Made by a program: the position numbers
Shown: one piece after another, positions 21,901 through 33,900 of the stretch
How positions within the stretch are numbered: position 1 is the stretch's first letter
Layout: each line of letters opens with the position of its first letter
Assembly (NCBI GenBank): GCA_051439605.1
Contig: JBFRWN010000141.1
Location: 1-64,000 of the forward strand
DNA: 64,000 bases
Origin: Synechococcus sp.
Lineage (GTDB): Bacteria; Cyanobacteriota; Cyanobacteriia; Thermostichales; PCC-7336
Direction of reading: 5' to 3'

Positions 21901-24900
21901 GCGATATTTACAATGAACGCGAGAAATTAGCTTGGTCAATCGTAGTAGCAACCAAGGGCAAACAAGGATTTGTGGATGACTTGCTCGGTAGTGACGAGTA
22001 CCTCGAAAATTTTGGGGATGACATCGTTCCTTACCAACGCCGTCGAGTCCTACCTGGCCGCGATAAGGGCGAACTTCCCTTTAATATCAAGTCCCCCCGC
22101 TACGACGCATACTACCGTCAAATTCTCGGCTTCCCCCAAATCATCTTCACGTACGATGCAAAAGCGGCCAAGAAGTTCCGAAAAGGAACTACTAAGCGAG
22201 CTGGCGATCCTGCCGAATATTTGGAAATGGCGAAAAGTGTCTTTATCAATGCACCTGCCGTTCAGGGGGTCTCAGCTTCAAACATTGGGGACTACATGTC
22301 TAAAGTGCCCTCTCGAGCTCGCTAGCAATTGCATTTCCCCAATCTAGTTTCTTTATTTGCCTTCCCTATTTCTTTTGGGGGAAGGCTTTTTGTTGATGAG
22401 CCCCTAATGTTGGTGAGCTCTAGCTCTTACAATCCTTTCTTTTGCTTTTCATTGGGTGCGAAGCCTCTCGATATCCCACTCAAACTACGCCGCAATCTCC
22501 ACCACCGACGGCAACCCCAGCCGACAACCCCCTTCCTCCGCATGCAAATCCAACCAATCCACCAAATCCTCCGCCACTGAATCGCACTCCAAATCCCGAT
22601 GAATATCGTGAAAACACTGCGGATACGCCCGATGGCTGGCATCCCAATGGGGCACCTGCTCCACAAACGACGCACTGTGCACCGATAGCGCGATTGGGTC
22701 CGACTCCCCATGCAAAATTAGCAGCGGCACCTGCAAGCGCTCCGGATGCGTTTGAATCCACTCCACCGTGTCAAAAAACTCCGTCACCAACCGGGCGGTC
22801 CCCTTCGTATGCCGCAGCGGGTCCTGCAAAAACTCCTCTAACAGTTTGGGGTCGCGCACTCCCTTCGCCGGATCGATTCCCGTATCGAGGGTAAATCGAG
22901 GCCAAATTGTCGACAGCAACTGCCCCACCGCCAGCTTCACCGGCGGTACCCCCACCTTGCCCAGCGCCGGAGCCAACGCGATCGCCCCCGCCAAGTGAGG
23001 CTGCATCCGCATGACAAAATCCAACACCACCACTGCCCCTAAACTGTGCCCCACCAAAAACAGATTGCAGTTAGATGTCTGGCGATCGACCAACTCGATA
23101 AACGCCTGCAAATCTGACCGATAATCCTGCCAAGATTCCACATACCCCCGCTGTCCGTGAGATCGCCCGTGCCCCCTTAAATCGACTCCGTACAGGGCGT
23201 ATTCGTGGCTGACTAAAAACTCGGCCAGATGAACGAACGTGCCGCTGTGGCTGCCCAACCCGTGCACTAACAACAAAATCCCCTTCGGATGGGCATCGGG
23301 ATACCAGGCACGATAGAACATCTCGTACTCCTTCGCCCCCTCAAAAACGCCTTCCCGTGGCGGAATCACTCGCGTTAGCACCTTTAACCTCCTACTCTCA
23401 TCGAAGACGAACCCGAGGCTTTCTGAGGTCGCTTACTACCGAGCGATCGATAGACACCCAGGTCGAACGCATCCACCTGCACCGCATCGTAGCGAGCCTC
23501 CTCCGCTTCCTTGAGTAACCAAGCATCTTCCGGCGATACGATCCCGCGGACTTCAGCTTCCTCAATCAGCTGTGCGGGGCGGCCTTTCGGCAATCGACCT
23601 GACCGACTGGCAGCCTTGATAATTTTCAACATCGGCTCGGCTTTCAGTGCTAGGCCAAACGCCCGTTCCAGCCGACCGAGAGAATCCTGCGAACCTTTGG
23701 GGATATAAATGCCGTGGGTCAGCCTATCTCGATGACTGCCGCGAGCTTGGAGGGCTTGAGCCACATCGTGCCCGAGGCGATCGCTAGGCATGGCCCCAAT
23801 CGGATTGAGCCGCCACCAACCTAGCTGTAACCCACTGAAGGTCAACCCCATACCGGCAATGGACAGATTGCCGGAAATCCCTTCAAATGCCGACTGCATT
23901 TGGGCAAACGCGTAATCCATCGACCAGCGCAACAGCGGCAAATCTTCCTCTTGCTGGCCTTCTGCCTCGTATCTGCGCAGGGTGGCAGCAGTCAAATACA
24001 TCCAGGACAGCACATCGGCAAACCGACCGGCTAATTTTTCTCGCCGCTTCAAACTGCCTCCAAAGTTGAATAGCACGAGGTCTGTCAGCGCAGCAAAGGC
24101 CGCAGAAGCCCAGGCTAACTTCTGGTAGTAACGAGCGGTCTTACCTCTAACCGGAGAACTTGCCAATCGTCCCCGGGTGAGATGTAGCAGGACGGCACGG
24201 GTTGAATTGCTGGCCGCCGAGCCCACATGGGACCAGAAGACGCGATCGAACCGATCCAGATCGGAGGATTCTAACGCTACAATTTCATCAAATACGTAGG
24301 GATGGCAGCGAATCGCCCCCTGACCGAAAATCATCATCGATCGCGTTAGGATATTCGCCCCTTCAACGGTGATGGAAATCGGAGTGGCGGTGTAGATATT
24401 CGCCAGTAGATTGCGCGGCCCGCGACAGATGCCCGCTCCCCCCATCACATCCATACCATCGTTAATAATTTTGCGGGAGAGTTCGGTGGTGGTGTACTTG
24501 GCGATCGCCGATACCACCGCTGGTTGTTCGCCGCGATCGACTGCTCCGCAGGTGTACTGACGGGCCGCATCTACGATGTAGGTTAGTCCGGCAATCCGAG
24601 CCAGTGGTTCTTCGATCCCTTCAAATTTACCAATGGACAAACCGAACTGCTTGCGTACGACAGCATACGCTCCAGTCACCCGCGAGACCAATTTGGCTAC
24701 GCCAGAACAGGTTGCCGGGAAGCTAATCCCCCGTCCCGCAGCCAGCGACTGCATCAGCATCTTCCACCCCTGCCCCGCCTGTTCTACACCGCCAATAATT
24801 TGGCCGATGGGTACCACGACGTCATGTCCTTGAGTGGGGGAGTTGTAAAACGGCACCCCCATCGGGTCGTGCCTTTGATTGACGATGACGCCGGGGATAT

Positions 24901-30900: not shown

Positions 30901-33900
30901 ACGGTGCTAGGGGGCTCTGGCCATCCCTCGATAGTGATATCGCTGACGTGCTCGGTACTACCGATGACGTAAATAATGGTGGCTAAATCATCAGGGGAAA
31001 GACGAGATCGCAGCTGCCTGCGTTTCCCTACGGAAAACCGTTCGGTCCCTCGGGATAGAATCTCCTGGAATGCTACGTACTGACAGTGAGGATGAGGGAG
31101 GTTGAGTGCACTGGGAACCGGCTGCTGTTCTACCACCACAATCGTCGTTAAATGTTCGCTCAACGAGATGGGCTGTGCAATTTTTTCCAGTAATTTCCTA
31201 CTCGAAACAATCAGCACTTTAGACTGTGAATGATTCAAGATATAGCCGATCGCAGAAGGGGCTTCCGACAAATCGATAGGTACATCGACCAACCCAGCCG
31301 TCGCGCACCCCAGATCGGCGATCGCAAACTGAACATCGCTGTTCATAAAGAGTGCTACGCGATCGCCTTTTTCCAACCCCAAACTCAACAGACCAAGGGC
31401 AAATGTATCTGCAGAAACGCGCAGATCTTGTAAAGACGTACCCTCCCAATTTCTGTGTAGATATTGATTGAGCGCTCGTTCGTTGGGCCGCAGATCGCAA
31501 GCTTCGTCAAGCAGTGCGGGTAATGTACGGCCTGCAAAAACCATCCCTCCTTGCGCAGGGGAGACCACCGACCGATGGATATTCATTGGATTATTGAAGA
31601 ACTCCAGGCTCTTCCACTCACAACCTTATGACTTGCAATTTTTATGCGCCGACTGCCAGTCTGAATTTAGCGCAACTCACACCTTAATACGTACACAAAG
31701 CCAATAAAAACAATCCGATAGAGCAACGCATGTTTAGTTTTATTGGCTGTTTGGTCTATTTACTAGTATACGGCCGTAAAAAAGTGACACTTGGGATTGG
31801 CAACAAAAATAAAGCTCTACCCAAAATAATTCTTTACAGATTTAATGCCCCATAAAAAGCTACGCGGCCCATAAAATAGGGACGCACCACCATGGTTCAG
31901 GCAGTTATAGATGCAGCATGGAAATTCCTGGCGGGGCATCTTTTCTAGAATCTATAATTTTTTCCTATTTCAATTCTAGCTGTTTCCCTCTCGGTTAGGG
32001 CTACAGAATTAATGCCCAGTAAAGGATACTGCCACTTAACGGTCACAATTGGACCGAGAGATTAAAGCTCAGCCCGTGTTTCAACTGATCGAAAAACCTC
32101 GGCAAGATAGCAGTCAGGATAAACGTTGACCCATAGTTAAAGATCGAACGCCTCAGTTATAGAGGCGTCCATAGATCCAGATAGTTAATTAACGAAACCG
32201 TTCTAAGTGGCTAGACCGCTGCTGTAATTAGGCCTCGCGGCGGCGGGGTCTGCGACTGCCTTGGAAGTTGCGGCGATCGCCGCCACCACGAGGGCCTCGG
32301 TCGATGGAAATATTTGTGGGCTCTCCGCAGATGCGGACTTCTCTCAGGTGATTGAAGGTTTCCTCGGGCATTCCCTCGGGCAGATCCACAACGCTGAAGC
32401 TGTTAAACAGACGAATTCGGCCAATATGCCGGCTTTGTATGCCCCCTTCGTTAGCGATCGCCCCCACAATGTGTTTGGGGGTTACACCGCGATCGCGACC
32501 AATTTCAATCCGATAGCTGACCATCCCTGCTTCAGGACGGTTGCCACGATTACGATCGCGGCGCTGAGGACGATCTCGACTGTCGGGAGTATCGTCATGA
32601 AACCTGGGCTCGGGCTCTTTAGGGAGCTGCAGGGGGCGCTCCTTCTGTACTAGGTAGGTGAGAGCTGCAGCTATTTGTAGGGGGCTAAATCCCTTTTCCT
32701 CTTTTAGGTTGTGCACCAAATCCTCGAAGAATTCCATTTCCTCTTGGTTGGCAATCGTCTCAGCCACTTTGTCCTTGAACTGAACAATCCGACGGGCTGC
32801 AATATCGATGTTGCTGGGTAACTGCATAGGGTCGATTTGCTGACGAGTGGCCCGCTCGATGTTGCGCAGTAAACGACGCTCGCGGCGATGGACGAATAAA
32901 ATAGCGTCCCCTTTGCGTCCTGCTCGACCGGTACGGCCAATGCGGTGGACGTAGGTTTCGGTATCGAGGGGAATATCGTAGTTGATGACATGGCTGATGC
33001 GTTCTACATCCAAACCACGAGCAGCAACGTCAGTAGCGACAACAATGTCGAGGGACCCTCGCTTGAGACGTTCGATCGTCTTTTCACGCAATACTTGGGT
33101 GACATCGCCATTCAGGACTGCACTGGCATAACCGCTGTTTTCCAATAGTTCTGCCAGCTCGGCGGTCATGGATTTGGTGCGGGCAAAGATAATTGCAGCA
33201 TCAAATTCTTCGGCTTCAAGGATGCGAACTAGTGCGTCCTGCTTGCGCATCCCCTGAACGGTCCAGTAGCGCTGAGTAATGCTGGACACCGTAGCAGTCT
33301 TGGCAGCAATCTTGACCTCTACAGGGTCAGTGAGGTGTTGGCTAGCTACCTTGCGAATTTCCACCGGCATTGTGGCGGAGAACAGGACCACCTGACGGTT
33401 TTCGGGAGCCTGATTCAGGATGGTTTCTACATCGTCGATGAAGCCCATGCGCAACATTTCGTCTGCTTCATCCAGAACGATCGCTGACAAACCGCTGAGA
33501 CTTAGAGTTCCGCGACGCAAATGATCCAGCAGTCGACCGGGAGTGCCCACAACCACATGAACGCCGTAGCGCAGATCGCGGATTTGCTGGCCGATGCTCT
33601 GACCGCCGTAAAGAGTCGTTATTTTAAATCCAGACAAATGACGTCCGTAGGACTCCATTGCGTCTGCAACCTGAATGGCCAACTCTCGGGTGGGGGCCAA
33701 AACTAAGACTTGAGGCTCGCGGCGGGAAAGGTCAATGTTGCTCAGCAATGGCAGGGAAAAGGCAGCGGTTTTTCCGGTGCCGGTTTGGGCTTGGCCAACC
33801 ATATCGCGGCCATCCAGTAAAGGGGGGATACTTTGAGCCTGAATGGGTGAAGGAGTTTCGTAACCAACGTCGGCGACCGCGCGCAATATAGGTTCGGCTA

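Follow-up and report, generated by a model that had tools for sequence, protein, structure and literature searches.

A native cyanobacterial operon, probably for fatty acid beta-oxidation, whose FadD-like protein lacks the ATP-using motifs

RESULTS AND DISCUSSION

The 64,000-nucleotide stretch of a Synechococcus sp. contig analyzed here (the window) carries five genes that are real, native and intact, and that probably form a beta-oxidation operon with a degradative role overall. The entry of fatty acids into the pathway would be unusual, because its first enzyme, a FadD-like protein, has lost the parts that use ATP. In our best reading, the operon serves to gain energy when light is limiting, by oxidizing fatty acids of the cell's own membranes, and not to grow on fat.

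Organization of the operon

The five open reading frames (ORFs) lie side by side on the minus strand (22485-31586), and their coordinates, spacing and domain content bear out the survey's finding of five neighboring genes. The intergenic gaps are 18, 86, 23 and 2 bp in the order FadD-like protein, FadN, FadA, FadE and esterase. The first gene (29550..31586) encodes the FadD-like ANL-fold protein of 678 aa, with an AMP-binding domain, whose motifs, models, trees and co-occurrence are described below. It is followed by fadN (27153..29531), with the domains 3HCDH_N, 3HCDH and ECH_1, by the gene for the 393-aa 3-ketoacyl-CoA thiolase FadA (25885..27066; Thiolase_N/C, with Cys91, His347 and Cys377), and by the gene for FadE, an acyl-CoA dehydrogenase of the long E. 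coli type (23384..25861; Acyl-CoA_dh_N/M/1 and ACDH_C, catalytic Glu500). The last gene (22485..23381) encodes a Hydrolase_4 esterase of 298 aa, resembling monoacylglycerol lipases and lysophospholipases, with the triad Ser113-Asp228-His258. An AT-rich spacer of 641 bp on the same strand (31587..32227) separates deaD from the operon and presumably holds the promoter region; no sigma-70 consensus site was detected in it. A gene for an slr2103-like acyltransferase is located 3.7 kb from the operon within the window.

FadE comprises 825 aa when counted from a TTG codon and 820 aa from an ATG five codons further, and its N-terminus contains two hydrophobic segments. That it is a full-length FadE, as had been claimed, is confirmed by its score against PRK09463 (1023 bits, cut-off 600); it also passed the cut-off of PRK13026, and scored 873 against NF038187 (FadE_coli), under the cut-off of 1300. 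The 814-aa, ACDH_C-type FadE of E. coli has the same domain set and length, but the FadE here is partnered with FadN and not with FadB. FadA scored 462 bits against TIGR01930 (cut-off 241), and FadA and the long FadE are the sole thiolase and acyl-CoA dehydrogenase matches of the genome.

The active sites of the three core enzymes are conserved throughout the cyanobacterial orthologues (57 or 58 for each enzyme). Glu500 of FadE is present in 57/57, the Cys-His-Cys residues of FadA in 57/57, and His145, Glu157 and Glu606 of FadN in 58/58, with Glu586 in 57/58; the exceptions amount to one Glu to Asp and one Gly to Ala substitution and two N-terminally short FadN ORFs. The operon thus provides acyl-CoA dehydrogenase, enoyl-CoA hydratase/3-hydroxyacyl-CoA dehydrogenase and thiolase. 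An ATP-dependent acyl-CoA ligase as entry enzyme appears to be missing, judging from the motifs of 56/56 orthologues.

The operon is native and widespread

An origin from a heterotroph by contamination or misassembly would fit the GC content of the operon (54-58%, against 51% for the genome), its tetranucleotide distance at the 94th percentile and the genome contamination estimate of 4.1%. However, phycobiliprotein, linker and bilin reductase genes are found on the same contig, the 9.1 kb operon contains 15 HIP1 octamers compared to 0.86 per kb genome-wide, and the five-gene order is identical in all three same-genus genomes, one of which consists of a single contig. Moreover, the 58 cyanobacterial FadN sequences in the tree, this one included, form one clade. 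The same-genus synteny, the FadN clade and the HIP1 content rule out contamination or misassembly, to which we assign virtually no chance, in line with the earlier conclusion. The position beside phycobiliprotein genes, which had also been pointed out, is real insofar as such genes occur on the contig, but it is kept in none of the other 57 loci.

The survey's finding had presented the operon as rare (about 6 genomes of the class) and as the exception of one clade, and neither view holds. Among 401 family-balanced genomes of the class, 84 have FadN and 85 a full-length FadE, the latter accompanying FadN in 84/84 genomes, and the operon is present in 11 of the 41 sampled families. The order fadD-fadN-fadA-fadE is kept across 58 cyanobacterial loci, one of which ends at a contig edge, and the four gene trees have 15-19 supported splits in common per pair, versus at most 2 after shuffling. 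A single gain by cyanobacteria, followed by patchy retention, is part of our best explanation. By their source names, the operon-bearing cultured strains include Acaryochloris marina, Chlorogloeopsis fritschii, Synechococcus sp. PCC 7336, Myxosarcina sp. GI1 and Phormidium tenue FACHB-1052.

The esterase is less constant. It occurs in or near the operon on the same strand in 37/58 loci, five of which have it fused to the FadD-like protein, and it was not found in 20/58 loci, some of them ended by contig edges. In this genus it is the last gene, and elsewhere it lies upstream of, or is fused to, the FadD-like gene.

The FadD-like protein has lost the adenylation motifs

Public annotations name the FadD-like protein a ligase, and the survey had labeled it a long-chain acyl-CoA ligase, a label that does not suit a gene without ATP-using motifs. 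In this genome the P-loop is replaced, the A8 Arg has become Tyr511 and the A10 Lys is absent; we take the A3 P-loop, the A8 Arg and the A10 Lys to be the adenylation motifs. In this genus an insert of ~33 aa interrupts the P-loop region. The operon orthologues have retained the P-loop, the A8 Arg and the A10 motif or its Lys in 0/56 cases each, whereas the nearest intact ligases, used as control, carry the P-loop in 99/100 and A10 in 87/100 cases. What the protein keeps are His287, Asp496, Lys517 and Gly521, and the corresponding A4 His, A7 Asp and A8 hinge Lys and Gly are present in 105/105 homologues. At A5, Gln replaces the Glu in 19 of these 105 and in roughly half of the 56 orthologues from the operon, a pattern that would fit a complete loss of nucleotide chemistry. 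Among the 105 closest homologues, three are still fully intact, including two sisters of the degenerate clade, and a Symploca protein retains an A10-like Lys. The A8 loop is already carried by the intact relatives, so its retention is an inheritance and not a new adaptation.

It is improbable that the protein has remained a full ATP-dependent ligase that works through non-standard residues, which would make the pathway fully canonical. Both ANL domains are there, the A5 and A7 motifs are largely kept and the public annotation agrees, but the P-loop positions are variable in the family, with no new invariant residues in their place, and the family-specific conserved sites lack any new Lys, while the one Arg among them (438) is common in intact ligases too.

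The gene is still under purifying selection (dN/dS 0.075-0.18 in 10 genome pairs), and the protein is present in 79/80 operon genomes versus 0/80 others, although it evolves faster than its operon neighbors (mean identity 46% versus 62-69%). In the trees it groups within non-cyanobacterial ligases. The genome also contains two intact Aas-like paralogues, named by resemblance and 27-29% identical to the FadD-like protein; Aas proteins (slr1609 type) belong to the same superfamily and keep all adenylation motifs. Since these paralogues branch apart, the FadD-like protein was rejected as an Aas orthologue.

From its motif pattern we propose that the FadD-like protein is a non-adenylating acyl-CoA-forming enzyme. 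An ANL-fold protein proposed to perform the thioester-forming half-reaction alone, PtmA2, may be a precedent. It is described as the non-adenylating acyl-CoA ligase in the biosynthesis of platensimycin (Wang et al. 2018, cited in the review PMC6594144). The FadD-like protein likewise combines the loss of adenylation residues with a predicted intact fold under selection. It descended separately, from long-chain ligases. PtmA2 was not among the fold matches listed for its model. PtmA2 reportedly has a dedicated adenylating partner, PtmA1, whereas no second AMP-binding ORF was found in the 58 operon loci (up to 25 kb each).

The model of the FadD-like protein shows a two-domain ANL fold (pLDDT 87.5) and aligns with 5bsr at Z 44.2 and an rmsd of 3.0 over 496 residues. 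Its rmsd was 4.5-5.0 to the thioester-state structures 5bst, 3a9v, 5bsr and 4g37, and 10.1 to 4g36 and 5bsm, while an intact relative modeled as control gave the reversed pattern (4.4-4.7 versus 10.4-11.0). The protein is thus modeled in the thioester-forming pose, although with one model each the missing A10 loop alone may account for the difference. Taken by itself, the half-reaction activity has, in our estimate, slightly less than an even chance of being correct.

Unlikely, but to be taken seriously, is that the pathway is the same and the FadD-like protein catalytically dead, acting as a binder of fatty acid or acyl-CoA, as a scaffold for the esterase and FadN, FadA and FadE, or as an AMP sensor, with acyl-CoA supplied by a side activity of Aas or another ligase. 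The disappearance of all ATP-specific residues, the frequent Gln at A5, the fusions to the esterase, the lack of an adenylating partner in the loci and the faster divergence are all in agreement with this. Yet the AMP-pocket and pantetheine-side residues are invariant, and the operon genomes share no other CoA ligase. This genome does have one intact stand-alone acyl-CoA synthetase, on contig C52, which could be an alternative fatty acid activator here, but in 80 operon genomes its best match reached 41% and the others at most 34%, and no alternative CoA ligase common to these genomes was found.

Proposed pathway

Assuming the half-reaction, the pathway could run as follows. The esterase, with its intact triad, would act on lyso- or monoacyl lipids and set their fatty acids free, and housekeeping Aas-type enzymes, to which the literature assigns ATP-dependent adenylation, may then adenylate them. 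The FadD-like protein would run only the second half-reaction, acyl-AMP + CoA -> acyl-CoA + AMP, with acyl-AMP either coming from Aas or remade from acyl-ACP and bound AMP, so bridging the ACP lipid pool and CoA. A membrane-anchored FadE would oxidize the acyl-CoA and pass its electrons, without electron transfer flavoprotein (ETF), most likely to plastoquinone or else to O2, and FadN and FadA, with their active sites kept, would complete each round. Acetyl-CoA may go to citrate synthase or acetate kinase, the genes for which are present, or into new fatty acid synthesis. NADH, reduced quinone and acetyl-CoA would thus be produced when light energy is short. The full proposal, that many cyanobacteria of 11 families use an AMP-shuttling, ATP-independent enzyme which moves ACP-bound or Aas-adenylated acyl chains to CoA, drives their burning when AMP rises, and has FadE reduce plastoquinone directly without ETF, is put forward as a tentative possibility.

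The ETF/ETF-QO route is usual for acyl-CoA dehydrogenases but is not established for E. coli-type FadE, and the glyoxylate shunt is needed for growth on fatty acids. As had been noted earlier, neither ETF and ETF-QO nor isocitrate lyase and malate synthase were found in a search of this genome. In the class, ETF scored over cut-off in 35/401 genomes, 0 of them among the 85 FadE genomes, and isocitrate lyase was found in 4/401, three of which bear the operon (3/85). The FadE of E. coli has been proposed to be a membrane protein and likewise has no known ETF partner, so the absence of ETF is a weak objection, although E. coli does have ETF homologues, unlike these 85 genomes. Fatty acids are unlikely to support net growth, because the ligase lacks adenylation residues, ETF is absent throughout the FadE genomes and isocitrate lyase is so scarce there. 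The survey's reading of a working canonical beta-oxidation therefore survives in part: beta-oxidation is the best reading, the core active sites are invariant and the matching five genes of C. fritschii PCC 9212 are induced together under limited photosynthesis, but for these same three reasons the pathway is not canonical.

The operon might instead trim or recycle acyl chains over a few rounds, to remodel membranes or to clear toxic free fatty acids, with no full oxidation, but we consider this rather improbable. A long FadE as the only acyl-CoA dehydrogenase match would suit it, yet in E. coli, which has this type of FadE, the spiral runs to completion, a single FadE being sufficient. The scarcity of isocitrate lyase and the interpretation of Battistuzzi et al. 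2024 (see below) also point this way, but the operon is induced at the same time as energy is limiting and transcripts for lipid synthesis are lower.

We likewise give little credence to a special substrate, such as phytyl-, alkane- or quinone-ester-derived acids, or to a reductive run toward a specialized metabolite. The unusual entry enzyme, the DUF1400 hydrolases with weak chlorophyllase-like scores that adjoin some operon copies and the slr2103-like gene nearby could be taken as hints of this. However, the 58 loci have no recurring biosynthetic or transport neighbor, the commonest family besides hydrolases occurring in only 6, and a FAD-linked FadE without ETF favors the oxidative direction.

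Relation to known systems

The gene cluster is not new, as it was named in 2019, and its core enzymes belong to textbook biochemistry. In C. fritschii, Ho and Bryant 2019 (PMC6424891) termed UYEDRAFT_05557-05553 of C. fritschii PCC 9212 (lysophospholipase, fadD, fadN, fadA and fadE) beta-oxidation genes, and reported induction in far-red light of 7.8-, 10.1-, 20.6-, 19.5- and 22.4-fold, respectively, while lipid synthesis genes dropped. These are the same five annotations on consecutive tags, from which we infer orthology; the esterase adjoins fadD there and comes after fadE here. In its treatment of this cluster, that paper takes fadD as a normal ligase, makes no mention of ETF and does not extend to other cyanobacteria. 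A protein of C. fritschii in our set (P0099), with 44% identity, is an orthologue of the degenerate FadD-like kind. In C. fritschii PCC 6912, Battistuzzi et al. 2024 found this induction too but interpreted it as recycling and not as degradation, setting their own data aside because of the premise that cyanobacteria lack beta-oxidation. A 2023 review states that such gene sets were never reported in cyanobacteria, and a 2026 paper that most cyanobacteria are without beta-oxidation.

This premise underlies natural-product discovery by isotope labeling and the choice of strains for fatty acid products, and our reading, if true, would correct it. Since cultured strains carry the operon, the question is directly testable. 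Two questions of enzymology follow: by what route acyl chains are transferred to CoA if the operon ligase cannot use ATP, and what accepts the electrons of the long FadE in ETF-free genomes, which is a question for E. coli too. If true, there would be a half-reaction ligase in primary metabolism, and the ETF-independence of E. coli-type FadE would gain support.

Outside the cyanobacteria, the Bacillus-type fadN-fadA-fadE and Deltaproteobacteria-type fadD-fadN-fadA-ACAD operons share the gene order and FadN architecture (FadN identity 40-45%), but their acyl-CoA dehydrogenase is a different one, with a shorter match that covers part of FadE at 24-35%. The FadD of non-cyanobacterial loci has both P-loop and A8 Arg in 9/10 loci with a long FadD match. 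The closest outside locus with fadN, fadA and a long fadE belongs to a Calditrichaceae metagenome-assembled genome (L087; 56, 68 and 56% identity, respectively).

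A native five-gene operon with a probable role in fatty acid oxidation

The survey's finding had described a complete set of β-oxidation genes, and the five adjacent genes proved to be real: positions 22485–31586 of the window contain five adjacent minus-strand ORFs with the domains as stated. In reading order, they encode a FadD-like AMP-binding protein (678 aa), a FadN-architecture protein (792 aa, with 3HCDH_N, 3HCDH, and ECH_1 domains), a thiolase (393 aa), a long acyl-CoA dehydrogenase, FadE (820–825 aa, with an ACDH_C domain), and a Hydrolase_4 esterase (298 aa), and the successive intergenic gaps are 18, 86, 23, and 2 bp. 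The operon is native to this genome, since phycobiliprotein, linker, and bilin reductase genes are located on the same contig, it contains 15 copies of the cyanobacterial marker octamer HIP1 in 9.1 kb, versus 0.86 per kb genome-wide, and the order of the five genes is identical in all three genomes of the genus, one of which is a single contig. Its GC content is slightly above that of the genome, and its tetranucleotide distance lies at the 94th percentile of 464 windows.

Three runs of RNA libraries made in a single study, available as contigs, each contained 6–14% of the stretch's words. Among the matches listed, pieces of 151–419 nt overlap parts of all five operon genes, many with few differing letters, and cover was absent in several flanking bins (17.0–17.7 kb, 19.7–20.3 kb, and most of 34.3–36.9 kb). 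Because the runs were selected for containing this stretch, and DNA can be present in such libraries, we do not take this cover as transcription. A promoter scan was uninformative, with 1 sigma-70-like site compared to 6.6 expected by chance.

Distribution and inheritance of the operon

The survey had presented the operon as an exception among cyanobacteria, its table giving ACDH_C in 248 of 3329 phylum genomes, and the operon turned out to be much more widespread than it had supposed. FadN matches (E ≤ 1e-30) were found in 84 of 401 genomes of the class, representing 53 of 169 genera and 11 of 41 families, and this 21% is not the share of species, since the sample was drawn evenly across families. 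FadE matches (E ≤ 1e-10) occurred in 105 genomes, of which 85 carry the full-length type, at 60% identity or above; the other 20 had weak generic matches alone and were set aside. All 84 FadN genomes are among these 85, and the additional FadE genome is 62% complete.

For comparison, 58 cyanobacterial loci were used: the window, 46 loci from the class sample (of 84 other genomes), and 11 named records. All of these loci preserve the order fadD-fadN-fadA-fadE, with one truncated at the end of its contig. Among the named carriers are Myxacorys, Leptolyngbya, Phormidium tenue, Tildeniella, Mojavia, and Scytonematopsis, and according to the source names, FadD-like orthologues occur in Synechococcus sp. 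PCC 7336, Acaryochloris marina, A. thomasi, Myxosarcina, Symploca, and Chlorogloeopsis fritschii. One genome of the sample, G314, carries the operon twice, on contigs C4 and C5. The same comparison showed that the position beside the phycobiliprotein cluster, to which the survey had drawn attention, is incidental, and a link between the two was rejected.

In a quick tree with 19 outgroup rows, the 58 cyanobacterial FadN rows formed a single clade (SH-aLRT 100), in which families were partly mixed (23 label changes, against a minimum of 11 and a shuffled mean of 52). The trees of the four core genes (56 loci) had 15–19 supported splits in common per pair, with 0–4 conflicts, against at most 2 when shuffled. 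From these trees we infer a single acquisition of the operon, after which its genes were inherited together, subject to losses and a degree of transfer. The closest non-cyanobacterial locus with fadN, fadA, and a long fadE is that of a Calditrichaceae metagenome-assembled genome (L087).

Core enzymes, electron acceptor, and fate of acetyl-CoA

All catalytic positions examined are conserved among the cyanobacterial orthologues: Glu500 of FadE and Cys91, His347, and Cys377 of the thiolase in 57 of 57, and His145, Glu157, and Glu606 of FadN in 58 of 58, with Glu586 in 57 of 58. At least one N-terminal hydrophobic segment is present in all 57 FadE proteins, and two in that of the window. The genome's three Oxidored_FMN genes were considered as dienoyl-CoA reductases, but this identity was unsupported; among the matches listed, one is 528 aa.

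Searches for ETF, ETF-alpha, ETF-QO, isocitrate lyase, and malate synthase found none of them in this genome, which is 99.98% complete and in which control searches gave matches. ETF exceeded the cut-off in none of the 85 FadE genomes, versus 35 of the 401 class genomes overall, but the 35 are confined to a few families, so that this exclusion is no statistical test. The missing ETF is not fatal to the pathway, since E. coli FadE has no known ETF partner and may be a membrane protein that itself reduces quinone, according to the accessible text of two papers (PMC11495604; PMC9329746). The ETF alpha/beta pairs in other genomes (e.g., L222:6213-8385, L223:4386-7988, and L158–L167, one with an ETF-QO-like gene) are almost confined to four families, and none occurs in a genome with the fad operon. 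Two sister families of the window's order are complementary in this respect: one has the operon without ETF, and the other has ETF in 21 of 23 genomes without the operon.

Isocitrate lyase was found in 4 of the 401 class genomes, 3 of which carry the operon. The window's genome contains citrate synthase and two acetate kinases, and neither enzyme of the glyoxylate shunt was found in it; judged by gene content, the pathway can therefore yield energy and C2 units but no net sugar. Overall, we regard the operon as a variant form of the fad operon already known, with no ETF, no glyoxylate shunt, and an obligate ligase-like protein encoded by its first gene.

The FadD-like protein has lost its adenylation motifs

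None of the 56 operon FadD-like orthologues has any of three adenylation motifs, namely the P-loop (A3), the A8 Arg, or the A10 Lys motif, which makes it very improbable that the protein is a canonical ligase. Among the nearest intact ligases, 99 of 100 have the P-loop and 87 of 100 A10, and both Aas-like paralogues of the window's genome (G000:C24:29570-31234 and G000:C13:80609-82351) retain all three motifs. All 105 of the closest homologues retain the A4 His, the A7 Asp, and the hinge Lys and Gly of A8, and in 19 of them Gln replaces the A5 Glu.

The gene is not decaying, given its low dN/dS (0.075–0.18 over 10 pairs, values that overlap with those of the other three genes) and its co-occurrence with the operon. 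Of 80 operon genomes, 79 encode the protein, the one miss being an 88% complete assembly in which the FadN match starts at the contig start, and it was found in none of 80 genomes without the operon, where 34–37% matches at most were found, in 7. A dead binder or scaffold seems to us an unlikely description of the protein. The preferred reading, a transfer of the acyl group from acyl-AMP to CoA, is itself tentative, at somewhat short of even chances, and what remains falls to other explanations of this step.

The degenerate proteins form one clade within intact ligases and apart from Aas, and two of the surrounding intact ligases are labelled Acidobacteriota and Bacteroidota by their sources. 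Some proteins do not fit this picture: among the 105 homologues, 3 have every motif intact, two of these being sister to the degenerate clade; in addition, an A10-like Lys is retained in the Symploca protein and the A8 Arg in one fragment (P0133). A metagenome scan for the genomic context of an intact sister, P0021, gave a closest match of 51%, and the top locus, L228, has an intact, stand-alone ligase and sits on a contig lacking HIP1. The genus of the window has an insert of ~33–40 aa in the dead P-loop (window 30880–30980, minus strand), where model confidence is low, and inserts occur there separately in L191, L192, L197, and the Symploca protein. The P-loop pattern used was likewise unmatched in a 703 aa acetate/acetoacetate-CoA-ligase-like protein on contig C16 (L218).

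Solved ligase structures gave no sequence match to the FadD-like protein at E ≤ 1e-30. Its AlphaFold model (pLDDT 87.5) is closer to thioester-state structures (rmsd 4.5–5.0; 5bst, 3a9v, 5bsr, and 4g37) than to adenylation-state structures (10.1; 4g36 and 5bsm), whereas an intact relative modelled alike gave the reverse (4.4–4.7 for the adenylation state versus 10.4–11.0 for the thioester state), with one model for each protein. The states of 4g36, 4g37, 5bsm, and 5bsr were taken from the entry titles, and 3a9v and 5bst are presumed to be thioester-state structures. The models weakly suggest that the protein may adopt the thioester-forming pose.

There is a precedent for a half-reaction ligase in PtmA2 of platensimycin biosynthesis, which, as the available text of PMC6594144 describes, divides the two half-reactions with PtmA1; in contrast, the 58 fadD-like loci lack an adenylating partner. 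PtmA2, which may nevertheless be alike, was not among the matches listed in a fold search with the FadD-like model. Aas, which according to PMC10114076 attaches free fatty acids to ACP via an acyl-adenylate, is a general candidate for the adenylating partner. A stand-alone intact ligase on contig C52 was rejected as conserved entry enzyme, as it is not common to the 80 of 84 other FadE genomes searched.

Proposed pathway, esterase, and neighboring genes

The operon probably serves to oxidize fatty acids from the cell's own membranes during a shortage of light energy. The observed part of this scheme comprises the gene content, the conserved residues, the co-occurrence, and the absences. The esterase would free a fatty acid, Aas would adenylate it, and the FadD-like protein would move the acyl group from acyl-AMP to CoA, the substrates and the hand-over being putative. 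FadE may then pass electrons to plastoquinone or O2 as presumed acceptor, and FadN and FadA would finish the spiral.

The esterase triad is invariant in all 27 proteins aligned, out of 38 esterases found. In the 58 loci, the gene lies upstream on the same strand in 28, directly downstream in 4 (the genus of the window), is fused to the FadD-like gene in 5, three of them from one family, is distant and on the opposite strand in 1, and was not found in 20. Some operons have a DUF1400 α/β hydrolase upstream (L019, L086, L179, L195, L196, L201, L204, L200, and L203), which in L200 is fused to the esterase; four that were scanned and the L200 fusion gave weak chlorophyllase- and PAF-AH-like scores. 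In 6 of 58 loci (L021, L175, L181, L183, L188, and L193), the gene immediately upstream of the operon encodes an Lrp/AsnC-family regulator, and no such gene lies near the operon in the window.

A gene for a slr2103-like acyltransferase (PF01553/PF03982) lies 3.7 kb upstream of the operon on the plus strand (window 35312–36172), with a 71% identical paralogue on contig C143. The enzyme could use the product of the operon, given the acyl-CoA preference of Slr2103 stated in the accessible part of a review; linkage of such a gene to the operon was not seen in the other loci.

Earlier reports

The operon has been named once in print: Ho and Bryant termed UYEDRAFT_05553-05556 of C. fritschii PCC 9212 β-oxidation genes in 2019 (PMC6424891). 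Their table gives far-red induction of 22.4-fold for fadE, 19.5 for fadA, 20.6 for fadN, 10.1 for fadD, and 7.8 for the adjacent lysophospholipase gene in one data set, and of 10.4, 11.4, 10.8, 8.6, and 3.2-fold, respectively, in the other, with no rise for the gene on the other side of the cluster (PMC6424891). Battistuzzi et al. saw the induction again in 2024 and, in the text available, preferred recycling as reading (PMC10830646); fadE and fadN rows were not found in its supplement. Figueiredo et al. (2021) reported, in the accessible part, that fadB/fadJ are absent in all 129 KEGG genomes and that "most" lack fadE, fadN, and fadA (PMC8252387), which is compatible with the operon, since FadN performs the job of FadB. 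The parts available of a 2023 review state that such gene sets were never reported in cyanobacteria, and those of a 2026 paper that the pathway is absent from most cyanobacteria (PMC13712857). Our literature search, with most subscription papers outside its reach, found neither a survey of this operon nor any description of the FadD-like motif loss.

Other features of the window

The large phycobiliprotein cluster (173–22325) contains two alpha/beta subunit pairs, two bilin reductases, four rod linkers, two CpcG, and CpeS/CpeT and HEAT lyases, and a third, single phycobiliprotein-domain gene is located at 7203–7829. At 51000–64000 lies a compositionally atypical, HIP1-poor island, with GC falling to 32%, that encodes TPR proteins, glycosyltransferases, a sulfotransferase, an FkbM methyltransferase, and an RTX calcium-repeat protein, and from this content it looks like an acquired surface-polysaccharide locus.
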